A stretch of DNA of 24,000 bases. Source: an uncultured Buttiauxella sp. (GTDB taxonomy: Bacteria; Pseudomonadota; Gammaproteobacteria; Enterobacterales; Enterobacteriaceae). The position numbers were made by a program, and so were the translations under genes. The notes beneath the pieces were generated by a model. That model was not told the origin of the DNA, did not search any database, and worked only from the letters and a program-made list of their open reading frames with translations. The stretch is taken from contig CBCPKK010000005.1 in the NCBI GenBank assembly GCA_965119215.1, positions 246,208 to 270,207 on the forward strand, read 5' to 3'. Positions 1 to 17,545 of this stretch are shown here, in pieces (the first letter of the stretch is position 1; each line of letters opens with the position of its first letter).

Positions 1-3000
1 GCTCCAACAAATTTTGAACTTCATGGCTTTGAGGAATGGAGTCAAAACGATTTTGCGAAACGAATTGATTTAGTCAAAGAGATTGTTGAGAGAATTACGG
101 ATATTGGATTACCCGATAATCACCCATGGAACGGTGTAAACCTTGAAGAAATATTACCAGTTGAAGTTGAACGGTTAATTTCTCGATTAAGCAATGTGCA
201 AGCGATGGTCGCACAGTTGCAATCGGATACTAATTGTCTTAGTGAAAAGCTCGCTATCATTCCAGTACCACTCATATTTTCAGAACTGGGGCGATTAGTA
301 CATATTGCTGAGTCGGTAGTTGACGCACCTGATATTTCTGCTGAAGCTTTAACCTCTATTGACTGGCAAGAAAATATAACTTCCGTTAAAAAACTTATTG
401 ATAGCATCAGGCGATACCAAGATTCTTATCAAGAGCTAGAACAATACATTGTTGTAAGTGAATTAGAAATGCCAGTAGTTGAACTGGATAACGAACTAGC
501 TAAATTGCCTCAAGATTTTAATTCAAAGGGATTTATAGCATCACGGAATTTATTGAAACCCTTGCAGAAACTATCTCAAGATGCGATGCGGTTGCATGAA
601 GAGCTCGGTACTCATGAGGGATTCAGTTCTATTCAGGAAATAGAACGACTTATCGCATTAGGGGAAAGAGTTTCTGCTGCCCCGAATGCATGCCCGGATG
701 CCTTCATTGCTTCTGTTTGGGATCATGGTGTAGAGAAAGCTGCTGAATTAGTCGATTCGATAGCAACATTCGATACCATATATAACGCAATTAGTGACAA
801 GATTAATGAATCGTCCTGGGAAATGGATTTAGTTATAGCCAGAAATCACCTTGCAAGCCATACCGGGATTTTTCGCTTTTTCAACTCTGACTGGAGAAAG
901 GCGAAAGCGTTAGTCGGTTCTCTCCTTAAAAAACCGGATCAACCGATACCACAACAAATAGCATTGCTCGATGAACTCATTCGCGGCCAGGTAGCGAGAA
1001 AAACAATCAAAGAAAACAATGAGTTTGGTCGTTCAGCTTTTGGAAGTGATTGGCGAGGAGAAAAAAGCGATAGTACTTCTTTGATGGCTCTCGTTGAATG
1101 GATGAGAACGTTGCGTGGCGTTGGAGTGGAAGCTCGGCAATTAGCGGGTCGTCTTGCAGATCGTGAAGGTATAAAGCTTCGAACCCAACAATTAAATATA
1201 TTGCTACAGCAAGTCAGACTAGAGCTAGATACGCTCTGGCATGCCTTTGGACTCTCACCCGAAGAGTATTTTTCGAATCAATTGTCTATCTCTCGCGTAC
1301 CTTTAATCTTCATCGAGCAGCGTGTACAGAAGCTGAATTGGATCGATGAAATATCGAGAAAGGTTCTGATCAATCCACCACTTCGTATTGATGAACGAAG
1401 CCAGCTAATACTAAGAATTATAGAGCTTCAAGAACTGGCTTCTCAGATCCATTCTGAAAAGATGATTGGTGAAAATGCGTTTGGTATTCAATGGAAAGCA
1501 CAATCATCTGATGTGAAGATACTCAGTCATGCGTACGACTGGATTGAACAATATTCAGATTTACGCTTTGTTGCCGCGAAAATTACAGATCGCACCGCAG
1601 TGCTTTTATCGGCAATAGCTGCTGTGGATTCCGGCAAGCAAATCTCAGATCATATTCTTCTGATTGCGGAAGAATTGCGTTCCAAACCTGAGTTGCTCTT
1701 CGGGGTAGCAAGCTTTGATCAATTATCGTTTAATTGTGTTGCTCAAAAGCTACAAACCTGGATATCCCATTCAGAACAGCTTTCTAAATGGGTTGCATAC
1801 CGCCATCGTGTTTCTTTAGCGCACCAATTTGGTCTGGGTGAGGTCGTAGCCAGGCTAGCCATTGGGCAACTCAACCTCGATTCCTGCCTCTCGTCGGTGG
1901 AAAGAACATATTACGAATCTTTGTTAAGAACAATGGTCATGAAAGAACCCGAATTAGCACGTTTTGATGGAGAGTTGCATTCCCGTCAGGTGGCGGGCTT
2001 TGCTGACCTCGATCTTAAACGAATCAAGGCTGCAAGCCTTGAAGTCGTGCGGGCACACCACAAACAGATCCCATCAAAAAATGCCGGTTTTGGTCCCATT
2101 GGGATTTTGCGTTCCGAGATGGTGAAAAAAAGAGGGCATATGCCTATCCGGCAATTGATGTCGAAGGCGGGATCGGCAATTCAAGCACTAAAACCAGTAA
2201 TGATGATGAGCCCATTATCCGTTGCTCAATTCCTGCTCCCAGGAAAACAGAAATTTGACCTTCTGGTTATGGATGAGGCTAGCCAGATACAGCCCGTTGA
2301 TGCTATTGGTGCCATTGCACGTTGTAAACAAGTTGTCGTAGTGGGGGATGAGCGTCAACTTCCACCGACGCGCTTCTTCGCCAAAATGACTGAGTCAGTG
2401 AATGATGATGACGATGATGTCGCTCAAGTTTCTGATATTGAAAGCATACTTGGGTTGTTTGTTGCGCGGGGTTTACCGCAACGAATGTTAAGATGGCACT
2501 ATCGTAGTCGACATGAATCTTTGATCGCCGTTTCAAATACTCAGTTTTATGAAAATAAACTCTTTATTGTTCCTAGCCCTTACACTCAGGAAGCAGGAAT
2601 GGGGTTGCAATTCCGGCATGTACCAGAGGGCTTTTTTGAAACAGGGAAAGGCGTTAATGCTGTTGAGGCTAAACAAGTCGCTTTGGCCATAATGGAACAT
2701 GCTCGTAAGTATCCAGAGCAGTCGTTGGGTGTAGCAACATTTTCCGTTTCACAGCGTAAAGTGATCCAGGATGAACTTGAACTATTGCGACGATTGAATC
2801 CTGATTTAGAGGAATTCTTTAACGCCCATCCCAGCGAACCATTCTTTGTCAAAAACCTTGAAAACGTCCAGGGTGATGAACGCGATGTCATTATGATATC
2901 AGTCGGTTATGCACGAAATGCTCAGGGCTATATGGCGATGCGTTTTGGACCTTTGGGAGCAGAAGGTGGGGAGCGTAGGCTTAATGTTTTAATTAGTCGT

Positions 3001-4158
3001 GCAAAACGACGTTGTGAAGTTTTCGCTTCTATAACTGATGAAGATATCGATTTAGAACGCGCGAAAGGTAAGGGAGTGTTTGCCTTCAAACTCTTTTTAC
3101 AATATGCCCGAACAGGTCGAATCTCTTTAGCCCAGCGTACTGAAAAAGAGATGGACAGTATCTTTGAAGAACAGGTCGCTAATGCGCTTCAAAACGCGGG
3201 TTATCAGGTTCACCCTCAAGTCGGTATTGCAGGATTCTTTATTGATATAGGGATTGCCGATCCCGAAATGCCTGGTCGCTATTTGTTAGGGATTGAATGT
3301 GACGGTCGCGCCTACCATTCTTCCCGTTCTGCGCGCGAGCGAGATCGCTTGCGTCAGGCAGTGCTTGAAGATCACGGATGGATTATTCACCGGATTTGGA
3401 GTACTGATTGGTTCCAGCGTCCAGCGGAACAATTGCACCGGACGCTATTGGCAATTGAGTCAGCTAAACGCGAACTGTCTGAACGTGCAGAGCACACTCA
3501 GCAGCGCACTCGTGCGGTACCAGTAGACATCATCACGGTTGATAGAGGCCCTGTTGTCGAGATTGGACTGGTAGACGCTGACGTTGTGGCGGCAACAACG
3601 GAAGATTACATCGAAGCCACCCCGGTGGGGCACCTTAACTATGAACTGCATGAAACACCATTAGGTATTCTTACAGAAATAGTTGAACAAATTATTGAAA
3701 CTGAATCTCCTGTGCATTTTAGTGAAGTTATTACTCGAATCAGAACTGCCTGGGGATTACAGCGCTCAGGAGCAAGGATTGAGGCGGTAGTAAATAGAGT
3801 AATCAATCTTGTCTGTAATAAAGGTGAAGTTACCAGAGATGGGCAATTTTTAATTCACCAAAAATCGACTATTTCTCTGAGAAATCGGCAAAACGTCAAA
3901 TCGTTGGGGCTTCGAAAGATTGAAATGCTTCCCCCAAAAGAAATTGCTATTGGTGTTGCTCAAGTGGTTAAGAACAATTTGGGGGCAACAGATGACGAGA
4001 TTGTCGTATCAATTTCAAGAATGCTGGGTTTTAAATCAACCAGTAGTTCTTTGCGAAAAACAATAGTAGACGTGTTGGATAATCTTATCGACGAAGGTCT
4101 TTTTGTACGGGAAGACGCATTGGTGTTAGAAAATAAACTAGCCGTTGAAGCTGAGTAA
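1..4158 (+). CDS. 5'-truncated giant SF1 (Upf1-like) helicase fused to a Vsr/DUF559-like endonuclease fold and a DUF3320-like C-terminal region; architecture of Hhe-type single-gene anti-phage helicase-nucleases
   Basis: Frame 1 is open from nt 1 (APTNFELHGFEEW...) into the 196..4158 ORF, so the N-terminus lies upstream of the window. Helicase motifs read directly: DLLVMDEASQ (2257-2286), VVVVGDERQLPPT (2332-2370), YRSRHESL (2500-2523), VQGDERDVIMISVG (2866-2907), ERRLNVLISRAKRR (2971-3012). No Walker A (GxxxxGK[ST]) occurs in the visible 1385 aa. Nuclease-like block FEEQVANALQNAGY...GIECDGRAYH...RDRLRQAVLEDHGWIIHRIWSTDW spans about 3163-3411. SPVHFSEVITRIRTAWGLQRSGARIEAVVNRVINLV (3706-3813) resembles DUF3320. 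Stop TAA at 4156-4158 is followed by a hairpin. Confidence 0.85.
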   Translation, partial: APTNFELHGFEEWSQNDFAKRIDLVKEIVERITDIGLPDNHPWNGVNLEEILPVEVERLISRLSNVQAMVAQLQSDTNCLSEKLAIIPVPLIFSELGRLVHIAESVVDAPDISAEALTSIDWQENITSVKKLIDSIRRYQDSYQELEQYIVVSELEMPVVELDNELAKLPQDFNSKGFIASRNLLKPLQKLSQDAMRLHEELGTHEGFSSIQEIERLIALGERVSAAPNACPDAFIASVWDHGVEKAAELVDSIATFDTIYNAISDKINESSWEMDLVIARNHLASHTGIFRFFNSDWRKAKALVGSLLKKPDQPIPQQIALLDELIRGQVARKTIKENNEFGRSAFGSDWRGEKSDSTSLMALVEWMRTLRGVGVEARQLAGRLADREGIKLRTQQLNILLQQVRLELDTLWHAFGLSPEEYFSNQLSISRVPLIFIEQRVQKLNWIDEISRKVLINPPLRIDERSQLILRIIELQELASQIHSEKMIGENAFGIQWKAQSSDVKILSHAYDWIEQYSDLRFVAAKITDRTAVLLSAIAAVDSGKQISDHILLIAEELRSKPELLFGVASFDQLSFNCVAQKLQTWISHSEQLSKWVAYRHRVSLAHQFGLGEVVARLAIGQLNLDSCLSSVERTYYESLLRTMVMKEPELARFDGELHSRQVAGFADLDLKRIKAASLEVVRAHHKQIPSKNAGFGPIGILRSEMVKKRGHMPIRQLMSKAGSAIQALKPVMMMSPLSVAQFLLPGKQKFDLLVMDEASQIQPVDAIGAIARCKQVVVVGDERQLPPTRFFAKMTESVNDDDDDVAQVSDIESILGLFVARGLPQRMLRWHYRSRHESLIAVSNTQFYENKLFIVPSPYTQEAGMGLQFRHVPEGFFETGKGVNAVEAKQVALAIMEHARKYPEQSLGVATFSVSQRKVIQDELELLRRLNPDLEEFFNAHPSEPFFVKNLENVQGDERDVIMISVGYARNAQGYMAMRFGPLGAEGGERRLNVLISRAKRRCEVFASITDEDIDLERAKGKGVFAFKLFLQYARTGRISLAQRTEKEMDSIFEEQVANALQNAGYQVHPQVGIAGFFIDIGIADPEMPGRYLLGIECDGRAYHSSRSARERDRLRQAVLEDHGWIIHRIWSTDWFQRPAEQLHRTLLAIESAKRELSERAEHTQQRTRAVPVDIITVDRGPVVEIGLVDADVVAATTEDYIEATPVGHLNYELHETPLGILTEIVEQIIETESPVHFSEVITRIRTAWGLQRSGARIEAVVNRVINLVCNKGEVTRDGQFLIHQKSTISLRNRQNVKSLGLRKIEMLPPKEIAIGVAQVVKNNLGATDDEIVVSISRMLGFKSTSSSLRKTIVDVLDNLIDEGLFVREDALVLENKLAVEAE

Positions 4159-4177: not shown

Positions 4178-4205
4178 TAAGGGCTTAATGTTTATTAAGC
4201 CCTTA
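4178..4205 (+). terminator. Rho-independent terminator hairpin between the convergent helicase gene and rnk
   Basis: Perfect 11-bp stem taagggcttaa (4178-4188) / ttaagccctta (4195-4205) with loop tgttta, followed on the + strand by tttatct. The tail on the - strand is not U-rich, so it is mainly convincing for the + gene. Confidence 0.6.
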
Positions 4206-4210
4206 TTTAT

Positions 4211-4621
4211 CTAGCGGTGGTACTCGCCAGCAGCTTCTGGCTGGTATTGCAGCTCCAGCACTTCCAGATGCGTTTGGTTACCGTTCGGTAACGTCCAGTT
4301 AATCACGGCTCCGACTCGTAAACCCAGTAATGCCGCACCAACGGGGGCCATCACTGAAAGCTGATTGTCGCTGTCATTCAGGTTTACCGGATAAACCAGT
4401 GTGCGAACATGCTCCTCTTTCGAAGCCAAATCGCGGAATTTTACGCGGCTGTTCATTGTTACGACGTCTGCCGGGATATCAGCAGGCTTACGCATTTCAG
4501 CTCTGTCCAGTTCTGCGTTCAGCGCCATAGCTACAGGCTGGTTGGCAAATTGTGGTTGCTCCAGCAAACGGTCGATACGCTCGGCATCGAGTTCATTGAT
4601 GATAATGGCTGGTCTGGACAT
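4211..4621 (-). CDS. rnk: Regulator of nucleoside diphosphate kinase (GreA/GreB C-terminal-domain family)
   Basis: 136 aa starting [23 protein letters not shown]... and ending ...[18 protein letters not shown], colinear with E. coli Rnk as I recall it. GGAGAG Shine-Dalgarno lies 6-7 nt upstream of the ATG at 4621. The longer 159-aa ORF would run through the upstream terminator hairpin. Confidence 0.9.
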
Positions 4622-4670: not shown

Positions 4671-4708
4671 TTACAAAAGAAAACCCTCACCGGTTAGAGT
4701 GAGGGTTT
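4671..4708 (-). terminator. Rho-independent terminator of the GntP-family permease gene
   Basis: Stem aaaccctcac (4681-4690) / gtgagggttt (4699-4708) with an 8-nt loop. The minus-strand RNA reads AAACCCUCAC-UCUAACCG-GUGAGGGUUU followed by UCUUUUGU. Confidence 0.7.
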
Positions 4709-4772
4709 GGTCTGTAGTGATGATACTGAGCTTAACGCTTAGTTTAAAGTGAGTTAAGTCACAAACTACAGT

Positions 4773-6149
4773 TTACAAAATAATGCTGCCTACCAGAGCG
4801 AACAGGAAGGCGATAGTCCCGATCAGCGTTTCCATCACGGTCCAGGTTTTCAGTGTGGTTTTCTCGTCCATTTCCAGGAAACGGCCAACCAGCCAGAAGC
4901 CGGAGTCGTTTACGTGAGACAGCACGGTCGCACCACCCGCAATCGCAACCACGATGAAGCACAGGTCGAACTGGCTCAGGCCAGGCGTTGCAGCAACCAT
5001 TGGTGAAATCAACGCCGCAGTGGTAGTCAGCGCTACGGTTGCAGAACCTTGCGCCACACGCAGAGCCGTAGAGATAACAAACGCGGCAACAATCACCGGC
5101 ATACCGGTATCAGACAAGATACCCGCCAGCGCATCACCAATGCCACTCGCACGCAGTACACCACCGAACATGCCACCCGCACCGGTCACCAGGATGATGC
5201 CGCAGATTGGGCCAAGCGCACCATCACACACTTTTTCCAGATGCTGACGGCTATGGCGACCGCTGAACACAGCAAGAGCAACGAAGACGGTGATCAGCAG
5301 CGCAACAGGGGTTTTACCCAGCATACGCAGGAATTGAATCACAGTGCTATCCGCGCTCACCCAACCGAGAACGGTCGCAGTGTTCAGGCCGGTATCGAGG
5401 AAAATCAGCACCAGTGGCAGCAGCAAAATACTTAACACGGTGCCAAATGCAGGTGGCTGGTGTTTAGGGTCAGGCTCGATATTGCCAAGGAAAGAAGAAG
5501 GCAGTGGAACTTCGAATTTTTTACCCGCGTACAGACCAAACAGATAGGCACCGAGGTACCAGGTCGGAAGCGCGATAACCAGGCCAACAACCACCAACAG
5601 ACCGATGTTCGCGCCCAGCAGTTCGCTGGCAGCAACCGGGCCAGGATGGGGTGGCAGCAATGCGTGCATTACTGCAAACGCACCCGCAGCAGGCAGCGCA
5701 TATTTCAGCGTAGAACCGCCAAATTGTTTCGCTACGCTGAAGATAATTGGCAGCATAACGACCAGGCCCGCATCAAAGAAGATCGGGAAGCCGAACAGCA
5801 ACGATGCCACGCCAAGCGCCAGTGGAGCACGCTGTGAACCAAATTTACCGACCAACGTGTCAGCAAGAACTTTGGCACCGCCAGAGATTTCGAGCAAACG
5901 GCCAATCATTGCGCCGAGGCCAACCAGCAGAGCAACGCCCGCCAGGGTACTACCAAAACCGCCCAGAATAGTGGGGACGATTTTATCAAACGGAACACCG
6001 GTCACCAGGGCGACGACCACACTCACCAGTGTTAATGCTAAGAAGGCATGCACTTTGAAGCGCATGATGAGAATAAGCAGGAGTACTACTGAGCAGGCTG
6101 CGATCCCTAGCAGGGTTCCTGCACCGTAATGGGCGGTTATTTCGGTCAT
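4773..6149 (-). CDS. GntP-family (gluconate/sugar-acid:H+) permease
   Basis: 458 aa from MTEITAHYGAGTLLGIAA..., polytopic and hydrophobic. It carries GntP-family signatures (PPHPGP, GSATVA, SHVNDSGFWLV, LKTWTVMETL) alignable to E. coli GntT/GntP/IdnT as recalled. AGAGGA SD lies 8 nt upstream of the ATG at 6149; the TTG-extended 474-aa version lacks an SD. Confidence 0.9.
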   Translation of the reverse strand: MTEITAHYGAGTLLGIAACSVVLLLILIMRFKVHAFLALTLVSVVVALVTGVPFDKIVPTILGGFGSTLAGVALLVGLGAMIGRLLEISGGAKVLADTLVGKFGSQRAPLALGVASLLFGFPIFFDAGLVVMLPIIFSVAKQFGGSTLKYALPAAGAFAVMHALLPPHPGPVAASELLGANIGLLVVVGLVIALPTWYLGAYLFGLYAGKKFEVPLPSSFLGNIEPDPKHQPPAFGTVLSILLLPLVLIFLDTGLNTATVLGWVSADSTVIQFLRMLGKTPVALLITVFVALAVFSGRHSRQHLEKVCDGALGPICGIILVTGAGGMFGGVLRASGIGDALAGILSDTGMPVIVAAFVISTALRVAQGSATVALTTTAALISPMVAATPGLSQFDLCFIVVAIAGGATVLSHVNDSGFWLVGRFLEMDEKTTLKTWTVMETLIGTIAFLFALVGSIIL

Positions 6150-6212
6150 ATATTTGTCCTCTGCGCCGAATTTGTAGGTGAATTGCACACTAAGCATAAT
6201 TCACCGCATTGC

Positions 6213-6241
6213 TGATACCGGTAACATGATATCGGTAACAT
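6213..6241. promoter_or_regulatory. Two tandem, abutting GntR/IdnR-type (LacI-family) operator-like imperfect palindromes in the permease promoter region
   Basis: tgataccggtaacat (6213-6227) and tgatatcggtaacat (6227-6241) share one T. Each reads TGTTAC-CG-GTATCA/ATATCA on the other strand, close to the TGTTAC..GTAACA core I recall for enterobacterial GntR operators. They lie 64-92 nt upstream of the permease ATG and overlap a possible TTACCG-17-AATTAT promoter on the minus strand. Confidence 0.5.
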
Positions 6242-6442
6242 GGCGCTGTCGGGAATGGACCCCCTCATGTTTATTAACAATTTGAGAGCAAGGTCAAACT
6301 ATCGAAATAAACCCTCACTAACATCAGTGGATCAATTGCCCAGCGTAAATAAACCTGTCACGCGCAAAATTTACCCTACCCTTTATAGGCACGTTCCACC
6401 TATGCGCCTTGTGCGGTCATCATCACCTGAACAGGAGATATC

Positions 6443-7273
6443 ATGAGCCATTTCGACAAACTCACGTTAAAGGACGGCAGTTCTCTTTATTTTAAGGATT
6501 GGGGAAAAGGGCAACCGGTCGTCTTCAGCCACGGCTGGCCATTAACGGCGGATGCGTTTGAAGATCAGATGTTTTTCCTTGGGCAAAAAGGATTCCGGGT
6601 TATTGCTCATGACCGTCGAGGACACGGGCGCTCATCCCAAACCTGGGACGGTAATAACATGGACCAGTACGCTGATGACCTGGCGGAACTGACCGCGCAT
6701 TTGAATCTGAAAGAGGCGATTCATGTTGGGCATTCAACCGGCGGTGGGGAAGTGGCGCGCTACATTGGGCGGCATGGTACGGATCGCGTGGCGAAAGCGG
6801 TTCTGATAAGCGCCGTTCCGCCCATCATGGTGAAAACAGATTTCAACCCTAATGGCGTACCCATTGACGTGTTTGATGGTATCCGTGAAGGCGTGCGAGC
6901 TAACCGCGCGGACTTTTTCAAAGAACTCACTATGGCGTTTTACGGCTATAACCGTTCTGGGGCAGAAATCTCGGAAGGGGTCAGAGAGAGTTTTGTTGAG
7001 CAAGGCATGCAGGGCGGAATCAAAGCGCTATACGACTGTATTAAAGCGTTCTCTGAAACCGATATGCGCGAAGACTTAAAGAAAATGACCATTCCGACGC
7101 TGGTTATTCATGGTGACGACGACCAAATTGTGCCGTTTGAAACCTGCGGGAAAGTCATTGCGGCAACATTATCGAACTCGATTTTCAAGGTCTATGAAGG
7201 CGGGTCGCACGGCATTTGTACCACGGAGAAAGACCGGGTAAATGCGGATTTGCTGGAGTTTATCACCTCGTAA
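6443..7273 (+). CDS. Alpha/beta hydrolase of the cofactor-free (non-haem) haloperoxidase / perhydrolase-arylesterase type
   Basis: 276 aa with GGAGA SD 6 nt upstream. Nucleophile elbow GHSTGG, acid [10 protein letters not shown] and histidine GGSHGI form a Ser-Asp-His triad. The N-terminus [20 protein letters not shown] is typical of this subfamily. Confidence 0.88.
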
Positions 7274-7295
7274 TTTTCGCTACATCAGATATTTG

Positions 7296-7349
7296 AAAAC
7301 CGCCCTTATTCCTTGACTCTCTGCCAGTGCGTCAGGGTAAGGGCGGTTT
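7296..7349. terminator. Bidirectional Rho-independent terminator (long imperfect hairpin)
   Basis: Outer arms aaaaccgccctta (7296-7308) / taagggcggttt (7338-7349), extended inward by ccttgac / gtcaggg with one G-U pair. U-rich tails occur on both strands (gtttgtttg on +, ttttcaaatat on -). Confidence 0.65.
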
Positions 7350-7364
7350 GTTTGCCGCCCCGTG

Positions 7365-7517
7365 TTAAGCCTTTTTCGCAACGGGGAGCATAATTTCTTT
7401 CAGTATTTCATAGCGTTGTTGCGGAGAAAGCCAAATCAAACCCAGCAGTTTGTGTTTCTGACCTTCGTGTTCGAATTGGGTTTTTAGCTGCAGTAAAAAA
7501 CGTTTTGTCGTGTTCAT
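7365..7517 (-). CDS. Small hypothetical protein (50 aa), no family recognised
   Basis: MNTTKRFLLQLKTQFEHEGQKHKLLGLIWLSPQQRYEILKEIMLPVAKKA. A strong SD (cGGAGGtcattATG) precedes the ATG at 7517. The gene is bracketed by a terminator downstream and a 150-bp divergent region shared with ypdC. Confidence 0.45.
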   Translation of the reverse strand: MNTTKRFLLQLKTQFEHEGQKHKLLGLIWLSPQQRYEILKEIMLPVAKKA

Positions 7518-7667
7518 AATGACCTCCGTATTTGATAAGCAAAGCCTATGCCTCAAAACCCGGAACTAATAGTGAACTGATTGTTTTTTGTCTTCCGTAT
7601 TTATGGTGATTTAATTGTACAGGGTGCTCGGGTAGGCTTGGGTTTTCCTTCTTACGGACAATCCACC

Positions 7668-8525
7668 ATGCCAGCAAGGACTCTGCCCGCCGAACAGCGT
7701 TTTTTTGCCGAACTTCTCAGCGGTGTGGTGCTCAATCCCAACCAACTTAAACGCTGCTGGTTTGCGCGCCAGCAGCTAACGGCTCCGGCAGGCAGCTACA
7801 GCATTAAATATCCTCGCCTTGAAGTGGTGTTACGCGGGGAATATGGCAATTTGTTGGATGCTGCGCAAAATGTATTAGTGCAGGGCGAGTTACTGTTTAT
7901 TCCGGCCAATGGCGTGAATCAGCCCGCCTGGAACAAAGATGTTTTGCTGCTGGGGATTGTGTTTGCGCCCGCTTATTTAAGCCTGTCATTTCATGATAAA
8001 CGTGTGGACCAGCAGGGTTTTCAGCGCGTGCGTAAGTGCGAAGTTCCTTACCAGAACCACAGTGAACTGGTGCATTTGCTTCAGGCTCTCGCCAGTCTTG
8101 GGGCGAATCCGGACGACCAGGAAATTATCCAGCCGCTGTGCCTGAGTTTATTGCAGTGCTGCCGCAAAATTTTGACTGAACCCACAGCCGATAAACTGGC
8201 TCGCGGGCCGTTTCTTTACCAGAGCATTTGCACCTGGATTCAGGATAATTACGCGCGTGATGTCACCCGTGAAAACACCGCAACACTGTTTAACATCACG
8301 CCGAATCACGTATCGAGATTGTTTCAGCAGCAGGGTAGCATGGGATTCGTGGATTACTTGCGTTGGGTACGAATGGGCAAAGCGAAGATGATTTTGCAAA
8401 AATACCATCTGACTATCCATGAAGTCGCGCGACGCTGTGGTTACCCGGACGGCGACTATTTCAGTCGCCTGTTTAAACGGGAGTTTGGCGTCACGCCTGG
8501 TGAGTACCGCGATCGCTTTCTTTAA
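7668..8525 (+). CDS. ypdC: AraC-family transcriptional regulator, positional equivalent of E. coli YpdC (convergent with fryA)
   Basis: 285 aa from MPARTLPAEQRFF... The C-terminal AraC double HTH reads LFNITPNHVSRLFQQQ...IHEVARRCGYPDGDYFSRLFKREFGVTPGEYR. The length and the position convergent to fryA match K-12 ypdC as I recall. The SD at the chosen ATG is weak, so the start is less certain. Confidence 0.8.
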   Translation: MPARTLPAEQRFFAELLSGVVLNPNQLKRCWFARQQLTAPAGSYSIKYPRLEVVLRGEYGNLLDAAQNVLVQGELLFIPANGVNQPAWNKDVLLLGIVFAPAYLSLSFHDKRVDQQGFQRVRKCEVPYQNHSELVHLLQALASLGANPDDQEIIQPLCLSLLQCCRKILTEPTADKLARGPFLYQSICTWIQDNYARDVTRENTATLFNITPNHVSRLFQQQGSMGFVDYLRWVRMGKAKMILQKYHLTIHEVARRCGYPDGDYFSRLFKREFGVTPGEYRDRFL

Positions 8526-11017
8526 AACTGCAGCTCGCTTTCCAGCAAACTCAGCATATCTTCGGTATTGCTCGCAGCAAATAAAGACTGACGGAAGGCT
8601 TTGTTCACCAGTTTACGGGCCAGTTGTGAAAACACTTTAACGTGATTCATGCCTTCGTTTGCGCCAAGCGTCAGCATAATCACCAGCTCGACTTCACCCA
8701 TGTCAGATTCCCAGTCAATAGGCTGCGGTAAGCGGGCAATGCTAATGCTGGAATGCTGAATATGGGTCGATTTGGTGTGCGGTATCGCCACGCCAAACCC
8801 CACTGCGGTGGTGACGATTTCTTCCCGCTGCCAGATATCTTCTTCCAGCGCTTGTGGATTATTAGTGCGCCCCTGAACAGCCAGATTGCCGCACAGGTAT
8901 TGAATCACCTGCTCTTTGCGTGTGAACGTGGCGGGGATAATGATATTTTCCCGTGCCAGCAATGGCTTGCTTTGTTGCGGCAGGGCAAACGCGTCCAGTT
9001 GCTGTTCAATTTGCTCGCTGGAGCGGCATTCACAAACCCGCGTTGCCAATTCCCGACACGCGCTCAAATCTAGTTGGCGCAACAGTGTTTTTGCCGCTGG
9101 AATGCGCGTGCTGCTCATGCTGAATTCATCCACGCCCAGGCCGAGTAACAGTGGCAGATAGCGTGTCTCGCCGCCCAGTTCACCGCAAATCCCAACCCAA
9201 CGGTTACGCTTGTGCGCCACCTCAATAATCTGCCGTAACATGCGTAAAAATGACGGCGTGATCGGGTTATAAAGGTGTGCAACGCGAGGGTTATTTCTGT
9301 CCACCGCATATAAATACTGCGTCATATCGTTCGAGCCAATGCTGAAGAAATCGACCTCATCGCAGAAGTGGTCAATGATGAAACACACCGAAGGGACTTC
9401 AATCATGATCCCTAATTCAATCGACGAAGCGTGGCGTAAACCCTCTTCCTTCAATGCCGCAATCGCTTTTTTAAGCTGCTGTTTCACCCATAAAATTTCA
9501 TCCAGCGTATGCACCATAGGGATCATCAACCGCGCATTGCCCCATGCCGCCGCACGCAAAATAGCGCGCAATTGCTGGGTAAATAAATCGGTAAATTCAG
9601 GGTAAATACGCACCGCGCGGTAGCCGAGGAACGGGTTTTCTTCTTCACCGATATTCAGGTAGCTGATTTTTTTATCACCGCCGATATCCATGGTGCGGAA
9701 AATCACCGGGCGGGAGCCTGCATCGAGCAAAACTTGTTGATACGCTTCAAATTGTTCCTGTTCGTCCGGTGCGCTATCGCGGTCCATATACAGCATTTCG
9801 GTGCGAAACAGGCCAACGCCTTCTGCGCCGTTGGCAAAGGCCGCCGCCGCTTCCAGTGGGCTGCCAATATTTGCCGCCAGTTCTATTGCTACGCCATCGC
9901 AGGTTTGTGCTTTCAAACCCACGGTTTCAAGCTGGCGTTGTCTTTGCCGTTCGGCTAAATCTCTGGCGACCTGATAATAACCGCACACGGGTTCATCCGC
10001 CTGCGTCACCAGCACGCCGCCGTTGGCATCAATAATGACGGACTCACCGGACAGATACTGCACCTGCGCAGTTTCTATGCCAGCCAGTACGGGAATGCCT
10101 GCCGCTCGCGCCAGTATCAGCGTGTGCGAAGTGCGCCCGGTTTTTGCCAGCACCATGCCTTGCAACCATTGCTTATCGAGATTTAAAAACTGACTTGGGG
10201 TAATGTCATCCGCCACCAGAATCGTTGGCTCAAGCAAGATGATAGCTTTGCCCACCGCCACTTGCGGGTAGGCAATTTGCAGCAGGCGCACCGTAATATC
10301 CTGAATATCAGACACTCGCTCGCGCAGATATTCGCTGGCAGACTGCGCCAGCTTGTTACAGACCTCATTCATGTTTTCAATTGCTGCCGCGCCAAGGCTC
10401 AGGCGGTTTTGTGTCATCTGGCGGCGAATATTTCCGGCAAATTCACTGTCCTGGATTAACGATAAATGCGCGTTAATAATCGGCCGACTTTTCCCATCCA
10501 GCACCGTGAGTTGCAGATTAAGTTGCTCGGCAAGCGTTGCCAGGCTGTGTTCAAGTAAGGTGCTGTCTTGCACACAAGCGGGTTGCTTACTGTAGCCATC
10601 AAGGCTGGTGGGGCGGAATATCATCAGTTGGCCTTCACCAACGCCAGGTGCGATGCCGCTGCCATAAATCAGTGTTGGGTTCAGGCGCAGTAATGAGCGG
10701 GGAAGGGGATGACTGTTGTCGGGCATTTCCGCCTGAATTTCACTGTCGCTATCGGCAAAACGGTGCTGGATATACGGCTCCAGTGTGCGCCAGGCTTTCT
10801 CTTCATCTGCCCCTTTGATTTCAAGGCTGCAAAGATCGTTAAACAACGTACCGGTGCTGATCAACGCCAATGAACTTTTCGCATCAGCTTGCTGGTTCAA
10901 GCGATGGTTAACAAAAGTAATCTCGCTGGAAAACGCGGTGCACTGTTCTTTTAATTCCCAGGCCGGACGCGCATGCAGGCCGTTAGGCAATGGGCAGATA
11001 AATTCAATTTTGAGCAT
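8522..11017 (-). CDS. fryA: Multiphosphoryl transfer protein of a fructose-like PTS (HPr-like + Enzyme I + EIIA-Fru/Ntr type)
   Basis: 831 aa. N-terminal HPr-like MLKIEFICPLPNGLHARPAWELKE. EI phospho-His region KTGRTSHTLILARAAGIPV plus the PEP-utilising C-domain (GSNDMTQY). C-terminal EIIA with GFGVAIPHTKS. GGAG SD upstream of the ATG at 11017. Confidence 0.92.
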   Translation of the reverse strand: MLKIEFICPLPNGLHARPAWELKEQCTAFSSEITFVNHRLNQQADAKSSLALISTGTLFNDLCSLEIKGADEEKAWRTLEPYIQHRFADSDSEIQAEMPDNSHPLPRSLLRLNPTLIYGSGIAPGVGEGQLMIFRPTSLDGYSKQPACVQDSTLLEHSLATLAEQLNLQLTVLDGKSRPIINAHLSLIQDSEFAGNIRRQMTQNRLSLGAAAIENMNEVCNKLAQSASEYLRERVSDIQDITVRLLQIAYPQVAVGKAIILLEPTILVADDITPSQFLNLDKQWLQGMVLAKTGRTSHTLILARAAGIPVLAGIETAQVQYLSGESVIIDANGGVLVTQADEPVCGYYQVARDLAERQRQRQLETVGLKAQTCDGVAIELAANIGSPLEAAAAFANGAEGVGLFRTEMLYMDRDSAPDEQEQFEAYQQVLLDAGSRPVIFRTMDIGGDKKISYLNIGEEENPFLGYRAVRIYPEFTDLFTQQLRAILRAAAWGNARLMIPMVHTLDEILWVKQQLKKAIAALKEEGLRHASSIELGIMIEVPSVCFIIDHFCDEVDFFSIGSNDMTQYLYAVDRNNPRVAHLYNPITPSFLRMLRQIIEVAHKRNRWVGICGELGGETRYLPLLLGLGVDEFSMSSTRIPAAKTLLRQLDLSACRELATRVCECRSSEQIEQQLDAFALPQQSKPLLARENIIIPATFTRKEQVIQYLCGNLAVQGRTNNPQALEEDIWQREEIVTTAVGFGVAIPHTKSTHIQHSSISIARLPQPIDWESDMGEVELVIMLTLGANEGMNHVKVFSQLARKLVNKAFRQSLFAASNTEDMLSLLESELQF

Positions 11018-11040
11018 AAGTTACTCCAGTTCGCAGAACA

Positions 11041-12081
11041 TCAACGCGAGAAATCCTTCAGGCGATCTACATTTTGGCGAGTTAACTGTTTAATCAGTGC
11101 CACCAGAAGTTGGTGGGTGTGCTTTAAGTCGTTTATATCAGCAATGGAGGCGGCGCAGTGGCCGTGGCGCGTTGGTGGCCCGACAACAACCGTCGGAATA
11201 CCCAAGCCGGAAAGATGAATACTGCCGCCATCAGTACCGCCGTTGCTGAACATATCGCGCTGCAATGGAATGGCATTTTCTTTTGCTACTTGCTCAACCT
11301 GTTGCGTGAGGCGCGGGGAGGGGATCATGGTTTTATCGTACATCACCAACATCGGCCCTTTGCCTATCTGGCGGTGGTTGGCTGAGCCATAATCAAAATT
11401 CTTCGCCCAACAGGCGGTGTCCAGCACTACTGCAATATCAGGGTTTAACAGGCGCGTAGCTGTTTGCCCGCCGCGTAAACCGACTTCTTCGCTGGATGTT
11501 GCAACCAGCCAGACTTCAGCATTAAGCGGCGCATCATGCAGTTCGCGCAACAGTTCCAGCAAATGCCAGCAGCCTAGACGGTCGTCGAAAGCTTTGCCCA
11601 TAATGCGCCCGTTTGGCTGCTCGCTAAATGGGGTATTGAAGGTGACATAATCGCCAGGGTTGATGCCTGCCAGCTCAACTTCTTCTGCGCTTATCGCACC
11701 AATATCTACACGGAGATTGCTAATTACGCCGTTGTTGCTGTCGCCGTCCAGCAAGCCCGCGATTTTTTTGCCTGCACGCGTGGTGATGCGCACGGGCTGC
11801 AAGGTGCGGGCGGTCATTCGCACATTACCAATCGGAATAACGTCGATAGCCCCTTCGCGGCTGATGCTGCGCACCATAAAACCTACTTCGTCCATATGCG
11901 CACAAATCATAATCTTCGGACCTGAGGATTGATTCAGGCGAATCAACGTCGAACCGAGTCCATCAAACTGTACTTCTTTATCGTAATGGCGCGCCTGTTG
12001 CAGCAGAATATCGCGCACTTCTTGTTCTGATGATGCAATGGCATCTGCTTCGCTTAATGCTTTTAACAATGACAAATCCAT
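11041..12081 (-). CDS. ypdE: M42-family aminopeptidase
   Basis: 346 aa. [24 protein letters not shown]..., [22 protein letters not shown] and [10 protein letters not shown] are metal-ligand motifs of the M42 (FrvX/YpdE) family. The start shares one nucleotide with the ypdF stop (TGATG). Confidence 0.9.
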
Positions 12082-13166
12082 CAGGCAACCCCTGTAAACA
12101 GCAGTGTTTTTGGCATGGTGTAGAGCACTTCACAACCCGTTTCGGTCACCAGAATGACGTCTTCAATGCGTACGCCGCCTTCGCCAGGGAGATAAATTCC
12201 CGGTTCAACGGTGAGCAGCATTCCTGGTTTGAGTAGCGTGGTGTCGCCTGGTGAGAAACGTGGATTTTCATGAACGTCGATACCAATGGCATGGCCGGTG
12301 TTGTGGCCGAAATGGTGGCTGTGTCCGGCCGCATTGATGATGCTGCGTGCGGTGTTATCAACGGTGTTGCAGGCAATACCTGGGCGAATGGCTGCAATTG
12401 CCGCTAATTGGGCTTCGAGCACCGTCTGGTAAATATCAAACAATGGATGCTCTTGTGGTTGGCGGTACTTTCCTGAAACTAAAAAAGTACGCGTCATATC
12501 GGAACAGTACCCCTGGTGTTGGGCGCCGAAATCCAGTGTGACTAATTCACCGCTTTCGATGATTTTTTCTGAGGCTTTGCCGTGAGGAAGTGCGCCACGC
12601 AAGCCGCTGGCAACAATGGTATCGAACGACGCTTTTTCTGCGCCACACTGGCGCATAAACCATTCAAGCTCGGCAGCAACCTCTCTTTCCCGCATGCCGG
12701 GCTGGATGAATTTCCGAATATGCTCGCACGCCCGATCGGCTATTTCGCAGGCGGCTTTTATCTTGTTAATTTCATCCACGGTTTTAATCTGGCGAAGCTC
12801 GTCAAGCGTGATGCTGTGCAGCTGCGTGGCTAATGCTTCGCGCAGTTGATTACCGGTTTGCCAGGTGACCTGGTCGCCTTCAAAACCGATATGTCGCAAC
12901 CCTTCTTCTTTGATCAACCGATTTACGATAGACACCACGTTGTGGGTGGCATCCAGCAAATGCAGTTGGTAGCCCTGAACGCGCCCGGCAATATCGGCAT
13001 GGTAGCGGGAATCGACCATAATATGCGCATGCTGGCGCGTCACGAATACATAACCGGAGGAGGTTGAAATCCCCAGATAGGGCTGTTTGCTGGCCCGCGA
13101 AGAGATCAATACGGCGTCGAGCTTTTGTGTTTGAAGCCAGGTTTTGAGTGGCGCGAGTTGTGACAT
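12081..13166 (-). CDS. ypdF: M24B-family Xaa-Pro / methionine-type aminopeptidase
   Basis: 361 aa with pita-bread fold motifs [35 protein letters not shown] and GGVRIED. It has the same length and operon position as K-12 YpdF. Confidence 0.9.
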
Positions 13167-13199
13167 AAATCCCCATTGCTATTGCTGGTGGATATCAAT

Positions 13200-13265
13200 G
13201 ACCCCCTCCCAACCTCCCCCTTGTCAGGGGGAGGAGCTAAAAGACATAAGGGTTGGGGTGGGGTC
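13200..13265. repeat. REP-like nested palindromic element in the fryC-ypdF intergenic spacer
   Basis: Inner perfect 8-bp hairpin cctccccc (13213-13220) / gggggagg (13227-13234) with loop ttgtca. Outer arms gaccccctcccaacc (13200-13214) and ggttggggtggggtc (13251-13265) match 13/15 as an inverted repeat. The C/G-tract style resembles extragenic palindromes common in Klebsiella/Enterobacter-like genomes. Confidence 0.5.
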
Positions 13266-13278
13266 TGTCTGGTTTTCG

Positions 13279-14526
13279 TTAAATCGTATCAATAATCAGC
13301 TTTCCACGGCGGTGCAGGCTGTTACGAATCAACACCGCCAACAGCGCCGTCACAATCGCCCCGACAGCAATACCCGCGATATACCCGCCAAGATTGGTGA
13401 CCAACGGCCAGGCCCAGATTGCTGATTCCGGGAACCATTGCACCGCGCCCAATGCGACTGCGGTCGTTGAACCGGCAATTGCGCCAATCATGTAGGCAGG
13501 GAGTGCCGAGAAGGGGTTTTCCAGTAAGAACGGGATAGCGCCTTCGCTGATACCCATGAAGGCCAGGAACATCGCCGTTTTACCCTGCGGATAAAGCTGT
13601 GGGCTGAACAGGCGTTTCCCCGTGAGGCGGTAGTCAATCAGGGTTGCCAGGCCAAGGCCGATTGGCGGTACAACAATCGCTACCGCACGCGAGGTAATCG
13701 GCAGCACATGGTCAGTGGTAAAGCCCAGCGCCACAAAACCAGCGGCTTTGTTGATGGGGCCGCCAAGGTCAATGGCGGTTGCGGCGGATAAACCAATGGC
13801 ATACATCAATGAGCCTGCATTGCCTGCTGACAGCAGAACATGGCGCATACCGGCATTGATCCAGCCGCCAATTGGCGTGATCACGTAGTACATCGCCAGC
13901 ATTACAAAAAGCGCTGAGAGAATGGGAATCAAGAAGGTGCTTTTAAACGCCAGCAAATAGTGTGGCAGGTTGATTTTGGTATTCAGCCATTTCACCAGAT
14001 AACCGGCAGCAATCGCGATAATCAGTGCGCCGATGAAGGTGGATGGAACAGGCTTCGAGGCCACCCACTGCAATGTCTCGTTATTGAAGCTCAGGAACAA
14101 AGTGGGTTGCGTGGAAACCAGCCCGCCAATAAAACCTGCAGGGAATGCCAGCTTGCCGCCGATAGAGTTGGCAACAAACGCGGCAAACATCGGAATAGCG
14201 AAGCTAAATAACAGCCCACCGAACGATTCCGTCAGATAAGCAAACTTGAGTACCGACAAATCAAAACCGGAAAATTTGCCGCTGTTTAGTGCATCCATGA
14301 TGCCGGTATCTGGCGGGATTTCGAGCCAGACATAGGCAATAAGTTGTGAGATGGCGAGGATCACCCCACCCATAATCAGCGTTGGCACCATGCGTGAAAT
14401 ACCGGACATCACATGCTGCGGCAGTTCGCCCCAAAAATTCGAGCGGCTGGTGGAGGCGGGTTTTAGCGCCAGGGTATCGCCTTGTGGAGTGGAGGCGACG
14501 GTCGCACTCCGTTTCTTAATTGCCAT
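13279..14526 (-). CDS. fryC: PTS fructose-like EIIC permease component
   Basis: 415 aa polytopic membrane protein (MAIKKRSATV...NFWGELPQHVMSGISRMVPTLIMGGVILA...), typical of the EIIC-Fru family. It has the same length and position as K-12 FryC. Confidence 0.9.
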   Translation of the reverse strand: MAIKKRSATVASTPQGDTLALKPASTSRSNFWGELPQHVMSGISRMVPTLIMGGVILAISQLIAYVWLEIPPDTGIMDALNSGKFSGFDLSVLKFAYLTESFGGLLFSFAIPMFAAFVANSIGGKLAFPAGFIGGLVSTQPTLFLSFNNETLQWVASKPVPSTFIGALIIAIAAGYLVKWLNTKINLPHYLLAFKSTFLIPILSALFVMLAMYYVITPIGGWINAGMRHVLLSAGNAGSLMYAIGLSAATAIDLGGPINKAAGFVALGFTTDHVLPITSRAVAIVVPPIGLGLATLIDYRLTGKRLFSPQLYPQGKTAMFLAFMGISEGAIPFLLENPFSALPAYMIGAIAGSTTAVALGAVQWFPESAIWAWPLVTNLGGYIAGIAVGAIVTALLAVLIRNSLHRRGKLIIDTI

Positions 14527-14550
14527 CTCATAACCCCATTGATTTGATTA

Positions 14551-14880
14551 TTATTGTTGTTCGGCTGCAATCATCTCTTCGATATCACGCAGGGTTCCTG
14601 CCGCGTTTTTAATCGCATCTTGCAGCGTGATTTCGTATACATCACGGCTTTCAAAACGTTCGTTATCTTCCGGTGTGATTGCGATGGCGTGAATGATGAT
14701 ATCGGCCTGTGCAATGTCCTGAGCCGTCAGGCGATTCTGAATACCGTCAGCACCTTGCGTTTCAATTTTGACTTCGTAACCTGCCTCTGTTGCTGCATCT
14801 TCCAGCGCCTGAGCCGCCATAAAGGTATGTGCCAGACCCATTGGACAGGCGCACAGTGCAATCAGTTTTTTCTTCGTCAT
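14551..14880 (-). CDS. fryB: PTS fructose-like EIIB component
   Basis: 109 aa. MTKKKLIALCACPMGLAHTFMAAQALE carries the EIIB-Fru phospho-cysteine motif (CPxGxAHT). GGAG SD upstream. First gene of the operon. Confidence 0.9.
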   Translation of the reverse strand: MTKKKLIALCACPMGLAHTFMAAQALEDAATEAGYEVKIETQGADGIQNRLTAQDIAQADIIIHAIAITPEDNERFESRDVYEITLQDAIKNAAGTLRDIEEMIAAEQQ

Positions 14881-15089
14881 GAGTTATCTCCAGGATGATG
14901 TTGATGCTGCGATTATGGCGGTTAAAAATTCATCCTGTTTACCAGATAAATAATGCAATCGCTGGATAATTAATTCATGAATGGCAAAGTGTGATTGAAG
15001 TCTGCTTATCGCAAAAACGTATGAATGAAGGGGAAATTGAGAGGATTACGCTTGCGGGGGCAGGCGTGGGTAAAGGGGAGGAGTAGCGT

Positions 15090-15560
15090 TCAGCTAATCA
15101 AACTTGCATCTATCTTCGCCACAATTTTCCTGAGCGCAGCAGGTTCATTTAACGTCGTCATTGGGCGATGAAGCTCACCGGGGAAAAGAATCGCCAGGTC
15201 ACCCGGCAGCAGTTTTATCAATGTTTCGCAGCCCATGCCTTGGTAGAAACCGATGTCATTTTGCTCGTCAAATTCACCGTCTGTCAGCTGTTGCTGTTCT
15301 ACGGGGGCGGCACCGATAATCTCTACGCCTTCCAGCACGATGTGCACATCAATGTAGCGGGCGTGCAGCTCCGGGCGCTGTTCTTCCAGAGGTTTGGTGT
15401 TGCCATCAAACACGGAAAAATAGATCAGTTCGCCTTCAATCGGGTATTTGCCGTTGGCGAGTTGTTGGGGTTGGTTGGCAATTATCGCCTGTAACGCCTG
15501 ACGAATAACCTGCGGATACACTGGGTTATGAGCCGCGTTGTCGAGTTTATCAATAATCAT
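15090..15560 (-). CDS. YhcH/YjgK/YiaL-family (DUF386, EbgC-like cupin) protein
   Basis: 156 aa. RPELHARYIDVHIVLEGVEIIG and LFPGELHRP align with E. coli YiaL (RPEVHRRYIDIQFL...FFPQDVHRP) as recalled. GGAGGAAAT SD upstream. It lies 9 nt downstream of the IdnO-like gene in the same operon. Confidence 0.85.
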   Translation of the reverse strand: MIIDKLDNAAHNPVYPQVIRQALQAIIANQPQQLANGKYPIEGELIYFSVFDGNTKPLEEQRPELHARYIDVHIVLEGVEIIGAAPVEQQQLTDGEFDEQNDIGFYQGMGCETLIKLLPGDLAILFPGELHRPMTTLNEPAALRKIVAKIDASLIS

Positions 15561-15569
15561 ATTTCCTCC

Positions 15570-16334
15570 TCACACCGCAACCAGCATGCCGCCATCAACA
15601 AACAGCAGATGGCCATTCACGAAGTTCGATGCTTTGGATGACAGGAATACCGCCGCACCAATCAATTCTTCCGGGTCGCCCCAACGCGCTGCTGGCGTGC
15701 GCTTGCACAACCACTGAGTGAACGCCTCGTCATCGACCAGCGATTTGGTCATCTCCGTTTTGAAATAACCTGGTGCAATACCGTTAACCTGGATGTTGTA
15801 GCGTGCAAGCTCAACGCACATGCCACGGGTCAACATTTTCACTGCGCCTTTTGCTGCGGCATACGGCGTAATGGTGTCGCGCCCCAACTCGCTTTGCATG
15901 GAGCAAATATTGATGATTTTCCCGGACTGGCGTTTCATCATGCGGCGCGCAACGGATTGCGAAACTAAAAACACCGCCGTCTGGTTTACGGCAATAATAT
16001 CGTTCCATTCGTTAACCGGAAATTCAGTAAACGGGTGGCGGCGCTGAATACCGGCATTATTTATTAATATGTCGATTGGCCCGATTTCTTGTTCAATATT
16101 CTCGATGGCTGTTTCAACGGCATCAGGGTCGGTAACATTAAATGCTGACGTCCAGGCGGTATAGCCGCTGTCGCGTAATTTCATGGCCGCATGTTCGGCG
16201 CGCTCAGCGGTAATATCATTGATAATAATTTCCGCACCGTGCTCTGCCAGCCCTTGCGCTAATAAAAAGCCTATACCTTGTGCCGAGCCAGTAATTAATA
16301 CGCGTTTATTATCGAGCGTAAATAAATTCGTCAT
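15570..16334 (-). CDS. idnO: SDR-family gluconate 5-dehydrogenase / 5-keto-D-gluconate 5-reductase (IdnO-like)
   Basis: 254 aa, nearly colinear with E. coli IdnO as recalled (ITGSAQGIGFLLA, NNAGIQRRHPFTEFP, NICSMQSELGRDTITPYAAAKGAVKMLTRGMCVELAR, GHLLFVDGGMLVAV). Contains the TGxxxGxG and YxxxK motifs. Confidence 0.9.
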   Translation of the reverse strand: MTNLFTLDNKRVLITGSAQGIGFLLAQGLAEHGAEIIINDITAERAEHAAMKLRDSGYTAWTSAFNVTDPDAVETAIENIEQEIGPIDILINNAGIQRRHPFTEFPVNEWNDIIAVNQTAVFLVSQSVARRMMKRQSGKIINICSMQSELGRDTITPYAAAKGAVKMLTRGMCVELARYNIQVNGIAPGYFKTEMTKSLVDDEAFTQWLCKRTPAARWGDPEELIGAAVFLSSKASNFVNGHLLFVDGGMLVAV

Positions 16335-16402
16335 GATGAATTCCTGTTATTGCTGCGTAGTATTTAATACCTCCTATCAAAGCGGTTCGCGCCATTCAAA
16401 AC

Positions 16403-16418
16403 TGTGAAGTAGATCACT
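16403..16418. promoter_or_regulatory. Candidate CRP-binding site in the divergent idnO-like / regulator intergenic region
   Basis: tgtga-agtaga-tcact matches the TGTGA-N6-TCACA consensus at 9/10 core positions. It sits 69-84 nt upstream of the idnO-like ATG. Confidence 0.45.
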
Positions 16419-16528
16419 ACGAATCGTGTTACGCCCGCATGATACCTGGAGTGTGAAGCGCGGCGGCTTTTCTTTTGTTGAGGATGCGGGGCATAATCAC
16501 TTTTCTGCGGGGTTATCAGGAAAGCCAG

Positions 16529-17521: not shown

Positions 17522-17545
17522 CCCTTAAATTGCTGAAGCGATCAC

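Follow-up and report, generated by a model that had tools for sequence, protein, structure and literature searches.

A stand-alone helicase-nuclease gene beside rnk in Buttiauxella, predicted to encode an anti-phage protein of the ProA family

A 24,000-nucleotide stretch of DNA from an uncultured Buttiauxella sp. (contig CBCPKK010000005.1, positions 246,208 to 270,207; the whole stretch is called the window here) begins inside a giant gene that combines helicase and nuclease modules and ends against the core gene rnk. This raises the questions to which family the gene belongs, whether its product acts alone and whether it serves in defence against phages. The initial annotation had taken the gene for Hhe, a single-gene anti-phage system, possibly accompanied by partners upstream. 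The analysis presented here assigns a probability of about 0.7 to a related but different reading, namely that the gene encodes a stand-alone, horizontally acquired anti-phage helicase-nuclease of 1856 amino acids from the ProA family (NF058533; PDC-S37), which is a sister of Hhe in a superfamily uniting DUF4011, a superfamily 1B (SF1B) helicase and a Vsr-like nuclease. The protein consists of DUF4011, a first RecA domain (RecA1) into which four tandem helical repeats are inserted, a second RecA domain (RecA2), a Vsr-like nuclease, a flexible linker and two winged helices. Judged from sequence conservation and predicted folds, the catalytic residues of the ATPase and of the Vsr-like nuclease are intact and the winged helices are of a DNA-binding type. 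The anti-phage role is proposed because two curated resources label the family in this way and because its relative Hhe has been tested.

Frame 1 of the forward strand is free of stop codons from nucleotide 1 onwards and comprises 1385 codons before the stop codon at 4156-4158. The visible part of the gene (1..4158, plus strand) was assigned to a ProA-family gene by this open frame, by its identity with the source genome's own full-length protein (P0371, 1856 aa), residues 472-1856 of which match the window at 100%, and by the score of P0371 with the ProA model. At least 1385 residues of one polypeptide are thus in view, as the initial annotation had claimed, and P0371 supplies the complete reading frame whose recovery it had proposed. 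The N-terminal 471 residues, which include DUF4011 as well as the Walker A motif (GPPGTGKS, P0371 residues 343-350), lie outside the window. A protein search also retrieved a protein of 1873 aa from metagenome contig L001 (P0001), which is 99% identical to the visible part. In P0001 Pfam places DUF4011 at residues 43-227 and the Walker A region at residues ~342-402, both off-window, which agrees with the expectation that DUF4011 precedes the visible modules. Residue numbers of the window correspond to those of P0371 minus 471 and to those of P0001 minus 488. The reality of the gene is confirmed by E-values far beyond chance and by the lack of a stop codon over 4.1 kb. Its start codon is ambiguous (1851 versus 1902 in L001): ENA calls a protein of 1873 aa, NCBI calls proteins of 1856-1857 aa beginning with MSENESS, and the two starts are 17 codons apart. 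Public records name members of the family 'DUF3320 domain-containing protein'. The contig of P0371 also encodes the proteins that neighbour the giant gene in the window, and these cluster at 90% identity or above with proteins of Buttiauxella izardii and Buttiauxella sp. WJP83, which identifies the host as a Buttiauxella. Complete genomes of E. coli contained no near-identical DNA, and E. coli was therefore rejected as the host.

The family assignment was based on whole-protein hidden Markov models (HMMs) of NCBIfam, for which the equivalog cut-offs are 1500 bits for 'anti-phage protein ProA' (NF058533.1, antiphage_ProA) and 2000 bits for Hhe (NF042953.1, Hhe_antiphage). P0371 scored 1632.8 bits with the ProA model, which passes this curated cut-off, and 1091.4 bits with the Hhe model, which fails. 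The orthologues from Pectobacterium, Klebsiella and Yersinia showed the same pattern of passing ProA and failing Hhe. ProA scores amounted to 1631.9 bits for P0001, 1645-1657 bits for the orthologues and 1119.8 bits for the visible part alone. Pfam recovered the ProA architecture with its DUF4011, split SF1 helicase, MTES_1575 nuclease and DUF3320 tail. When the PADLOC models were ranked by their score with the full-length protein, PDC-S37, a single-gene phage-defence candidate, came first with 1864 bits and Hhe next with 787 bits, a 2.4-fold gap; the visible part alone gave 1288 bits with PDC-S37. The PDC-S37 model has a length of 1550 positions and is nearer to the ~1600-aa forms of the family, which have fewer repeats.

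The combination of DUF4011, helicase and Vsr-like nuclease in one chain is common to the whole superfamily and does not discriminate between its branches. Hhe (Gao et al. 2020 panel; NF042953.1; PDLC02194) shares DUF4011, the SF1B helicase split by a long helical insert and the MTES_1575 nuclease with the window gene, and both are single genes that occur as exchangeable cargo of mobile elements. Of the initial claim of an Hhe architecture, the membership of the superfamily and the kinship with Hhe therefore stand, whereas the family identity does not. The difference lies in the tail. The ProA model aligns to the very C-terminus of P0371 (position 1902 of 1903), although its match is broken into three stretches and is poorer in the N-terminal half. 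Three relatives that lean towards Hhe (P0063, P0064 and P0067; ~1777-1832 aa, 1491-1604 bits with the Hhe model) all lack DUF3320 and end in a short tail ~100 aa past the nuclease, and their identity is ~43% over ~42% of the visible part. DUF3320, which the initial annotation had counted as part of the Hhe layout, is thus foreign to these relatives, and the alignment of P0371 with the Hhe model also stops short of the end of that model. The DUF3320 tandem winged-helix tail separates the ProA branch from the Hhe branch. The origin ascribed to Hhe, a functional screen in E. coli, was corrected as well, as Hhe was predicted and then tested heterologously. Scores within the family vary widely, from 2422 bits with the ProA model for a strong member of 2213 aa from Paracidovorax to ~1600-aa Streptomyces forms that remain below both the ProA and the Hhe cut-off. 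Together, the HMM scores across relatives place P0371 as a peripheral member of the ProA branch, above its cut-off, with this branch being the sister of Hhe. The short tail of P0064 harbors a GreA/GreB C-terminal-like domain (residues 1707-1776, 32.9 bits, above the gathering score). The gene rnk, which adjoins the giant gene in the window, itself encodes a protein of the GreA/GreB fold; this is probably a coincidence because the orthologues in other genera are not located beside rnk.

The helicase core was assigned to the Upf1-like SF1B helicases, as motifs I, II, III, V and VI are present and the nearest solved relatives are Upf1-like. Within the window the core, comprising motifs II-VI and RecA2, occupies 2257..3027 (+) and is supported by Pfam matches (C-terminal end of AAA_11 at residues 749-790, AAA_12 at residues 824-1009), invariant motifs and profile matches to the PDB. 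Conservation was assessed in an alignment of 24 full-length orthologues with identities down to 50%. On the plus strand, the Walker B motif (motif II) DEAS (residues 758-761, 2272-2283) and motif V QGDERD (2869-2886) are invariant in the orthologues, motif III GDERQLPP (2344-2367) is invariant in the form GDxxQLPP, and in motif VI GERRLNVLISRAKRR (2968-3012) the residues RR..N..SRA are invariant. Including the off-window Walker A motif, the motif VI arginines and the D...ECDG...H residues of the nuclease, all these positions are kept invariant or nearly so. A further segment with dense invariant columns in the same alignment (1960..2235, +; RFDGELHSR ... HMPIRQLM ... KPVMMMSPLSVAQFL) represents the conserved return to the RecA1 core ahead of motif II, and was modelled with low confidence (predicted local distance difference test, pLDDT) when the remainder of RecA1 was left out. 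The closest solved proteins in the PDB profile search were IGHMBP2 (7e-9), DNA2 (6e-6), Sen1 and Upf1, all of them generic Upf1-like SF1B helicases, with matches spanning the pieces around Walker A and motif II. Like these proteins, the window protein keeps all seven-motif residues; none of them has a counterpart of the ~830-aa tandem-repeat insert in RecA1. DNA2 is likewise a fusion of helicase and nuclease, but its nuclease is N-terminal and of the RecB type, whereas the nuclease studied here is Vsr-type and C-terminal. The PDB profile search revealed no solved structure of any family member, and a single-protein PDB sequence search remained empty.

The Vsr-like PD-(D/E)xK nuclease (MTES_1575, residues 1055-1149, 3163..3447, +) was recognized by Pfam with an E-value of 6e-37. 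Its candidate catalytic residues, identified by conservation, are D1082 (3244-3246), E1099-C-D1101-G (ECDG, 3295-3306) and H1106 (3316-3318), all on the plus strand and corresponding to D1570, E1587-C-D1589-G and H1594 in P0001; the D, E, C, D and G are invariant and the H is nearly so. In Foldseek searches the modelled fold matched the NGO0050 endonuclease-like protein 3hrl (target-normalised template modelling (TM) score 0.77) and the catalytic domain of I-Bth0305I, 3r3p (TM ~0.7). Family HMM, fold and conserved acidic and histidine residues thus agree on Vsr-like PD-(D/E)xK membership. The MTES_1575 family, the fold and the D...ExD...H residues are shared with nucleases of the Vsr/DUF559/I-Bth0305I type, whereas the nuclease of the window protein is one domain of a giant motor protein. 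In the model of the C-terminal module (residues 1010-1385, m0a336c91d498) the alpha/beta nuclease core is followed by a long helix (segment residues 132-160), a predicted disordered linker (pLDDT < 50 at 159-186) and two confident units; helix and linker together cover 3421..3585 (+). Each of the two units forms three helices and a beta-hairpin with pLDDT ~90. Winged-helix unit 1 (3661..3858, +) includes DUF3320 (residues 1215-1261, 3643-3783, Pfam E 1e-16) and winged-helix unit 2 (3934..4131, +), which is C-terminal, has a weak Pfam match to DUF4777 (residues 1327-1372). Foldseek matched the tail to the tandem winged-helix arrays of AlkX/YcaQ, SelB WH2-4 and Nse1/3. The modelled folds agree with the descriptions by Anantharaman et al. 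2013 (PMC3710099), who identified DUF3320 as a winged helix-turn-helix and MTES_1575 as a novel restriction endonuclease of the Vsr family. Three of the modules read from the sequence in the initial annotation were found where it had placed them: the Upf1-like SF1 core with motifs II-VI at 2257-3012, the Vsr/DUF559-type block near 3163-3411 and the DUF3320-like tail.

The part of the protein preceding the motif II region in the window belongs to an all-alpha insert of ~830 aa, which splits RecA1 between Walker A and motif II and of which 1..1950 (+) is visible. The AlphaFold model of this part (mbbd9b4a7156c) contains only helices, with pLDDT ~92 up to residue ~650. Pfam holds no family for the insert and Foldseek found no solved structural match in the PDB, the best having E 0.017 and TM <= 0.15. 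Comparison of the family alignment with itself in hhalign revealed an off-diagonal match (E 6e-23, 360 columns) with a shift of ~118-147 residues. This match and recurring tryptophans define tandem internal repeats at 184..1740 (+), with ~4 units of ~120-150 aa; the signature tryptophans (e.g. in SVWDHG, FGSDWRGE and FGIQWKA) are invariant. The profile of the insert alone retrieved 5729 cluster representatives (clusters at 50% identity) at E <= 1e-3. The four tandem all-alpha repeats in RecA1 and the tandem winged-helix tail are previously undescribed. Family members of ~1600 aa appear to carry fewer repeats.

The position of the gene in Buttiauxella was analyzed in 80 rnk-anchored loci from species-representative Enterobacterales, 12 of them Buttiauxella, and upstream context was taken from the 99%-identical contig L001 and from the 96%-identical locus of Buttiauxella sp. 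B2. By tblastn, the giant gene was present in one of the 80 loci, that of Buttiauxella sp. B2 (96% identity). In L001 and in Buttiauxella sp. B2 a LacI-type regulator is located directly upstream of it, and in five other Buttiauxella genomes the site is empty, with the LacI-type regulator 40-80 bp from rnk. Alignment of filled and empty sites delimits a cassette of ~5.9 kb between the core LacI-type regulator and rnk, which consists of an AT-rich leader of 255 bp, the gene and its own hairpin and takes the place of a short native intergenic hairpin. Neither an integrase nor att repeats nor a target-site duplication was found at the cassette boundaries in this alignment. The 3' boundary is a hairpin between the convergent genes (4178..4205), which was detected in a terminator scan as a 12-bp stem with a T-run and is unlike the hairpin at the empty site of other Buttiauxella. 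The leader showed no conservation across genera upstream of the gene, and no sigma-70 consensus was found in the 255 bp of the Buttiauxella version. The giant open reading frame has a GC content of 0.436 and a GC content at third codon positions (GC3) of 0.362, compared with ~0.52 and 0.55-0.68 in the flanking genes. The ratio of nonsynonymous to synonymous substitution rates (dN/dS) between Buttiauxella copies is 0.10-0.15, which indicates purifying selection. Composition, selection and empty sites together show a foreign, functional and accessory gene, a single-gene insertion acquired by a few Buttiauxella strains. Conservation of the locus across the genus, which the initial annotation had named as the mark of a housekeeping helicase, was thus not observed, while its view of the gene as the most defence-like element held, since no other defence-like element was found in the window.

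Orthologues in Klebsiella, Yersinia, Pectobacterium, Serratia and Paracidovorax have no neighbouring gene in common, and across 6 genera no conserved neighbour exists, as expected for a single-gene system. The Klebsiella variicola orthologue lies beside MazEF and Gp49/HTH toxin-antitoxin pairs. In Yersinia (L003-L005, 8345-17725) the orthologue directly follows a P4-type integrase and precedes a NERD-UvrD helicase, and the left flank exists in three versions. The Serratia fonticola orthologue (L089/L090, 8678-15556) directly follows smpB, the site of the transfer-messenger RNA integration hotspot; one strain has an integrase, RadC and a resolvase between smpB and the orthologue. The surroundings of the Pectobacterium and Paracidovorax orthologues are ordinary. 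On megaplasmids and chromids, 72 near-full-length family matches were detected; a scan of viral contigs with the full-length protein gave no match and phage genomes gave just 3 partial ones. Several strains of Ralstonia solanacearum harbor megaplasmid copies (H5-H8) that are split in two by an IS5/IS1405 transposase, whereas other strains have intact copies, which indicates recurrent inactivation.

Four other explanations of these observations were considered. That the protein is Hhe itself, the single-gene system of Gao et al., is very unlikely. Its layout is the same as far as the nuclease, the Hhe model aligns to residues 20-1641 of P0371 in a single stretch with E = 0 and PADLOC reports Hhe with 787 bits. 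However, the score is about half of the curated Hhe cut-off (1091 versus 2000 bits) while that of ProA is passed, PDC-S37 scores 2.4-fold above Hhe, the alignment reaches no further than model position 1698 of 1797, and the Hhe-like relatives carry another tail in place of DUF3320 and its tandem winged helices. The curated thresholds therefore exclude Hhe proper. A component of a multi-gene system would be conceivable since many helicase-nuclease defence proteins need partners and the upstream side lies outside the window; the initial annotation had placed any partners upstream of nucleotide 1. The gene found there, however, is the core LacI-type regulator, which abuts rnk in the five empty Buttiauxella genomes and hence is no partner. 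Empty sites and the variable contexts of the orthologues in five other genera therefore exclude such a system, the probability of which we consider almost negligible.

The remaining two explanations concern function. A housekeeping helicase-nuclease for DNA repair or replication, resembling DNA2 or AddAB, would suit the SF1B core with its DNA2 match and the Vsr-family fold, which in Vsr serves repair, and a large DUF4011 gene is reported to belong to the core genome of every P. aeruginosa isolate, where it flanks the defence hotspot cDHS1 (PMC10250203). Against this, the gene is absent at the locus in 10 of the 12 species-level Buttiauxella genomes, no other Buttiauxella homologue occurs among the named matches, the composition is foreign, and orthologues reside beside integrases or, in some copies, are disrupted by insertion sequences. 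This accessory status makes a housekeeping repair role highly improbable. A decidedly doubtful but somewhat better alternative is activity against plasmids or other mobile DNA, or a selfish single-gene element spread in a homing-like manner by its Vsr-like nuclease. It would account for the clean single-gene cassette without integrase or repeats at its boundaries, for the resemblance of the nuclease to the catalytic domain of the homing endonuclease I-Bth0305I and for the abundance of the family on megaplasmids and its virtual absence from phages. Yet known homing endonuclease genes do not resemble a gene of 5.6 kb that encodes a full helicase motor, the sites of insertion vary among genera, and the family is entered as anti-phage, or as a candidate for it, in two curated defence resources. 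The reading as a stand-alone anti-phage protein of the ProA family also has to face several observations that weigh against it. The ProA cut-off is exceeded by only ~9%, compared with the 2422 bits of the Paracidovorax protein, and with such a peripheral membership the function could have diverged. Literature searches yielded no experiment on the protein or a close orthologue, no publication behind the name ProA and no paper mentioning PDC-S37, which is a candidate system only. In Buttiauxella the gene is not part of a defence island, its neighbours being the LacI regulator, rnk, a GntP permease and metabolic and regulatory genes. The related DUF4011 gene reported as core in P. aeruginosa suggests that not all family members behave like accessory defence genes and calls for caution for the superfamily as a whole. 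Finally, the polarity of the helicase, the substrate of the nuclease and what the repeat arm does are inferred.

If the ProA protein acts against phages, one polypeptide would both sense infection and execute the response. The winged helices, DUF4011 or both might load the enzyme on DNA, and the Upf1/DNA2-like motor would then move on single-stranded DNA in the 5'->3' direction, as would be expected from its SF1B relatives. The repeat arm in RecA1 may gate ATPase and nuclease on phage replication or recombination intermediates, or on the proteins making them. Nicking or cleavage of DNA by the Vsr-like nuclease would either destroy the phage genome or abort the infected cell. Hints for the trigger come from Hhe. 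The PhageMaP preprint describes Hhe as a single helicase and nuclease gene with activity against phages, for which several T7 class II genes of DNA metabolism are candidate triggers; Bas63 g40 proved toxic in combination with hhe, and NAD-synthesis genes are weak counters. The existence of several T7 triggers suggests that an activity is sensed rather than one particular protein. Carrying these hints over to ProA by analogy is speculative. Going one step further, the repeats could form a modular arm for sensing phage proteins or intermediates of DNA replication, through which both the motor and the Vsr-like nuclease would be licensed allosterically, with the number of repeats (~1600-aa versus ~1860-2200-aa forms) tuning specificity; we consider this rather unlikely at present. 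If true, ProA and Hhe would constitute a class of single-chain sense-and-cut immunity that is distinct from Hachiman, Nhi and Mokosh.

The family is large and flagged as anti-phage by the NCBI and PADLOC resources, and thus catalogued, yet it is mechanistically unstudied, as no mechanistic study was found in the literature. The Buttiauxella locus offers a clean natural example of it, one gene that has a leader and a terminator of its own, matched empty-site genomes and intact catalytic residues. It is therefore a convenient minimal construct to study how a one-protein helicase-nuclease recognises infection. With the label corrected from Hhe to ProA/PDC-S37, the DUF3320 tail shown to part two clades and an undescribed repeat arm identified in RecA1, the results refine existing knowledge without overturning it and will not surprise a specialist in defence systems.

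Two antisense open reading frames lie within the giant gene (120-407 and 2586-2891, minus strand; 95 and 101 aa) and are most likely spurious. Downstream, the giant gene ends convergently to rnk, as initially annotated. This core gene (4211..4621, minus strand, 136 aa) was identified from its translation and from Pfam matches of the L001 gene to Rnk_N and GreA_GreB; it belongs to the flank and not to the system. An rnk_leader (RF01771), a known cis-regulatory element of the ordinary kind, was detected upstream of rnk at 4672-4780 on the minus strand with 72 bits, the gathering score being 50.

The junction between rnk and the LacI-type regulator (L006-L026, ~10409 onward) is empty in five Buttiauxella and contains the ProA cassette in two. 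In Dryocola, in Enterobacter sp. TMH.L2 and in one metagenome-assembled Buttiauxella genome it holds ~4.7 kb with an OmpR-type regulator, a sigma-54 activator, MarR, TetR and an autotransporter fragment. The junction was considered as a defence hotspot, and this was rejected, as the cargo in other genera consists of regulators, the autotransporter fragment and transport or metabolic genes. On the other side of rnk, which in E. coli is adjacent to rna, the window contains ~15 kb of ordinary transport and metabolic genes (4773-20783) up to and including rna (RNase I, 19980-20783). This interval encodes a GntP permease, a hydrolase, an AraC regulator, a fryA-like protein of the phosphotransferase system (PTS), M42 and M24 peptidases, PTS IIC/IIB components, a short-chain dehydrogenase/reductase, a LacI regulator, a 2-hydroxyacid dehydrogenase and a major facilitator superfamily transporter, followed by citT-citG-citX.

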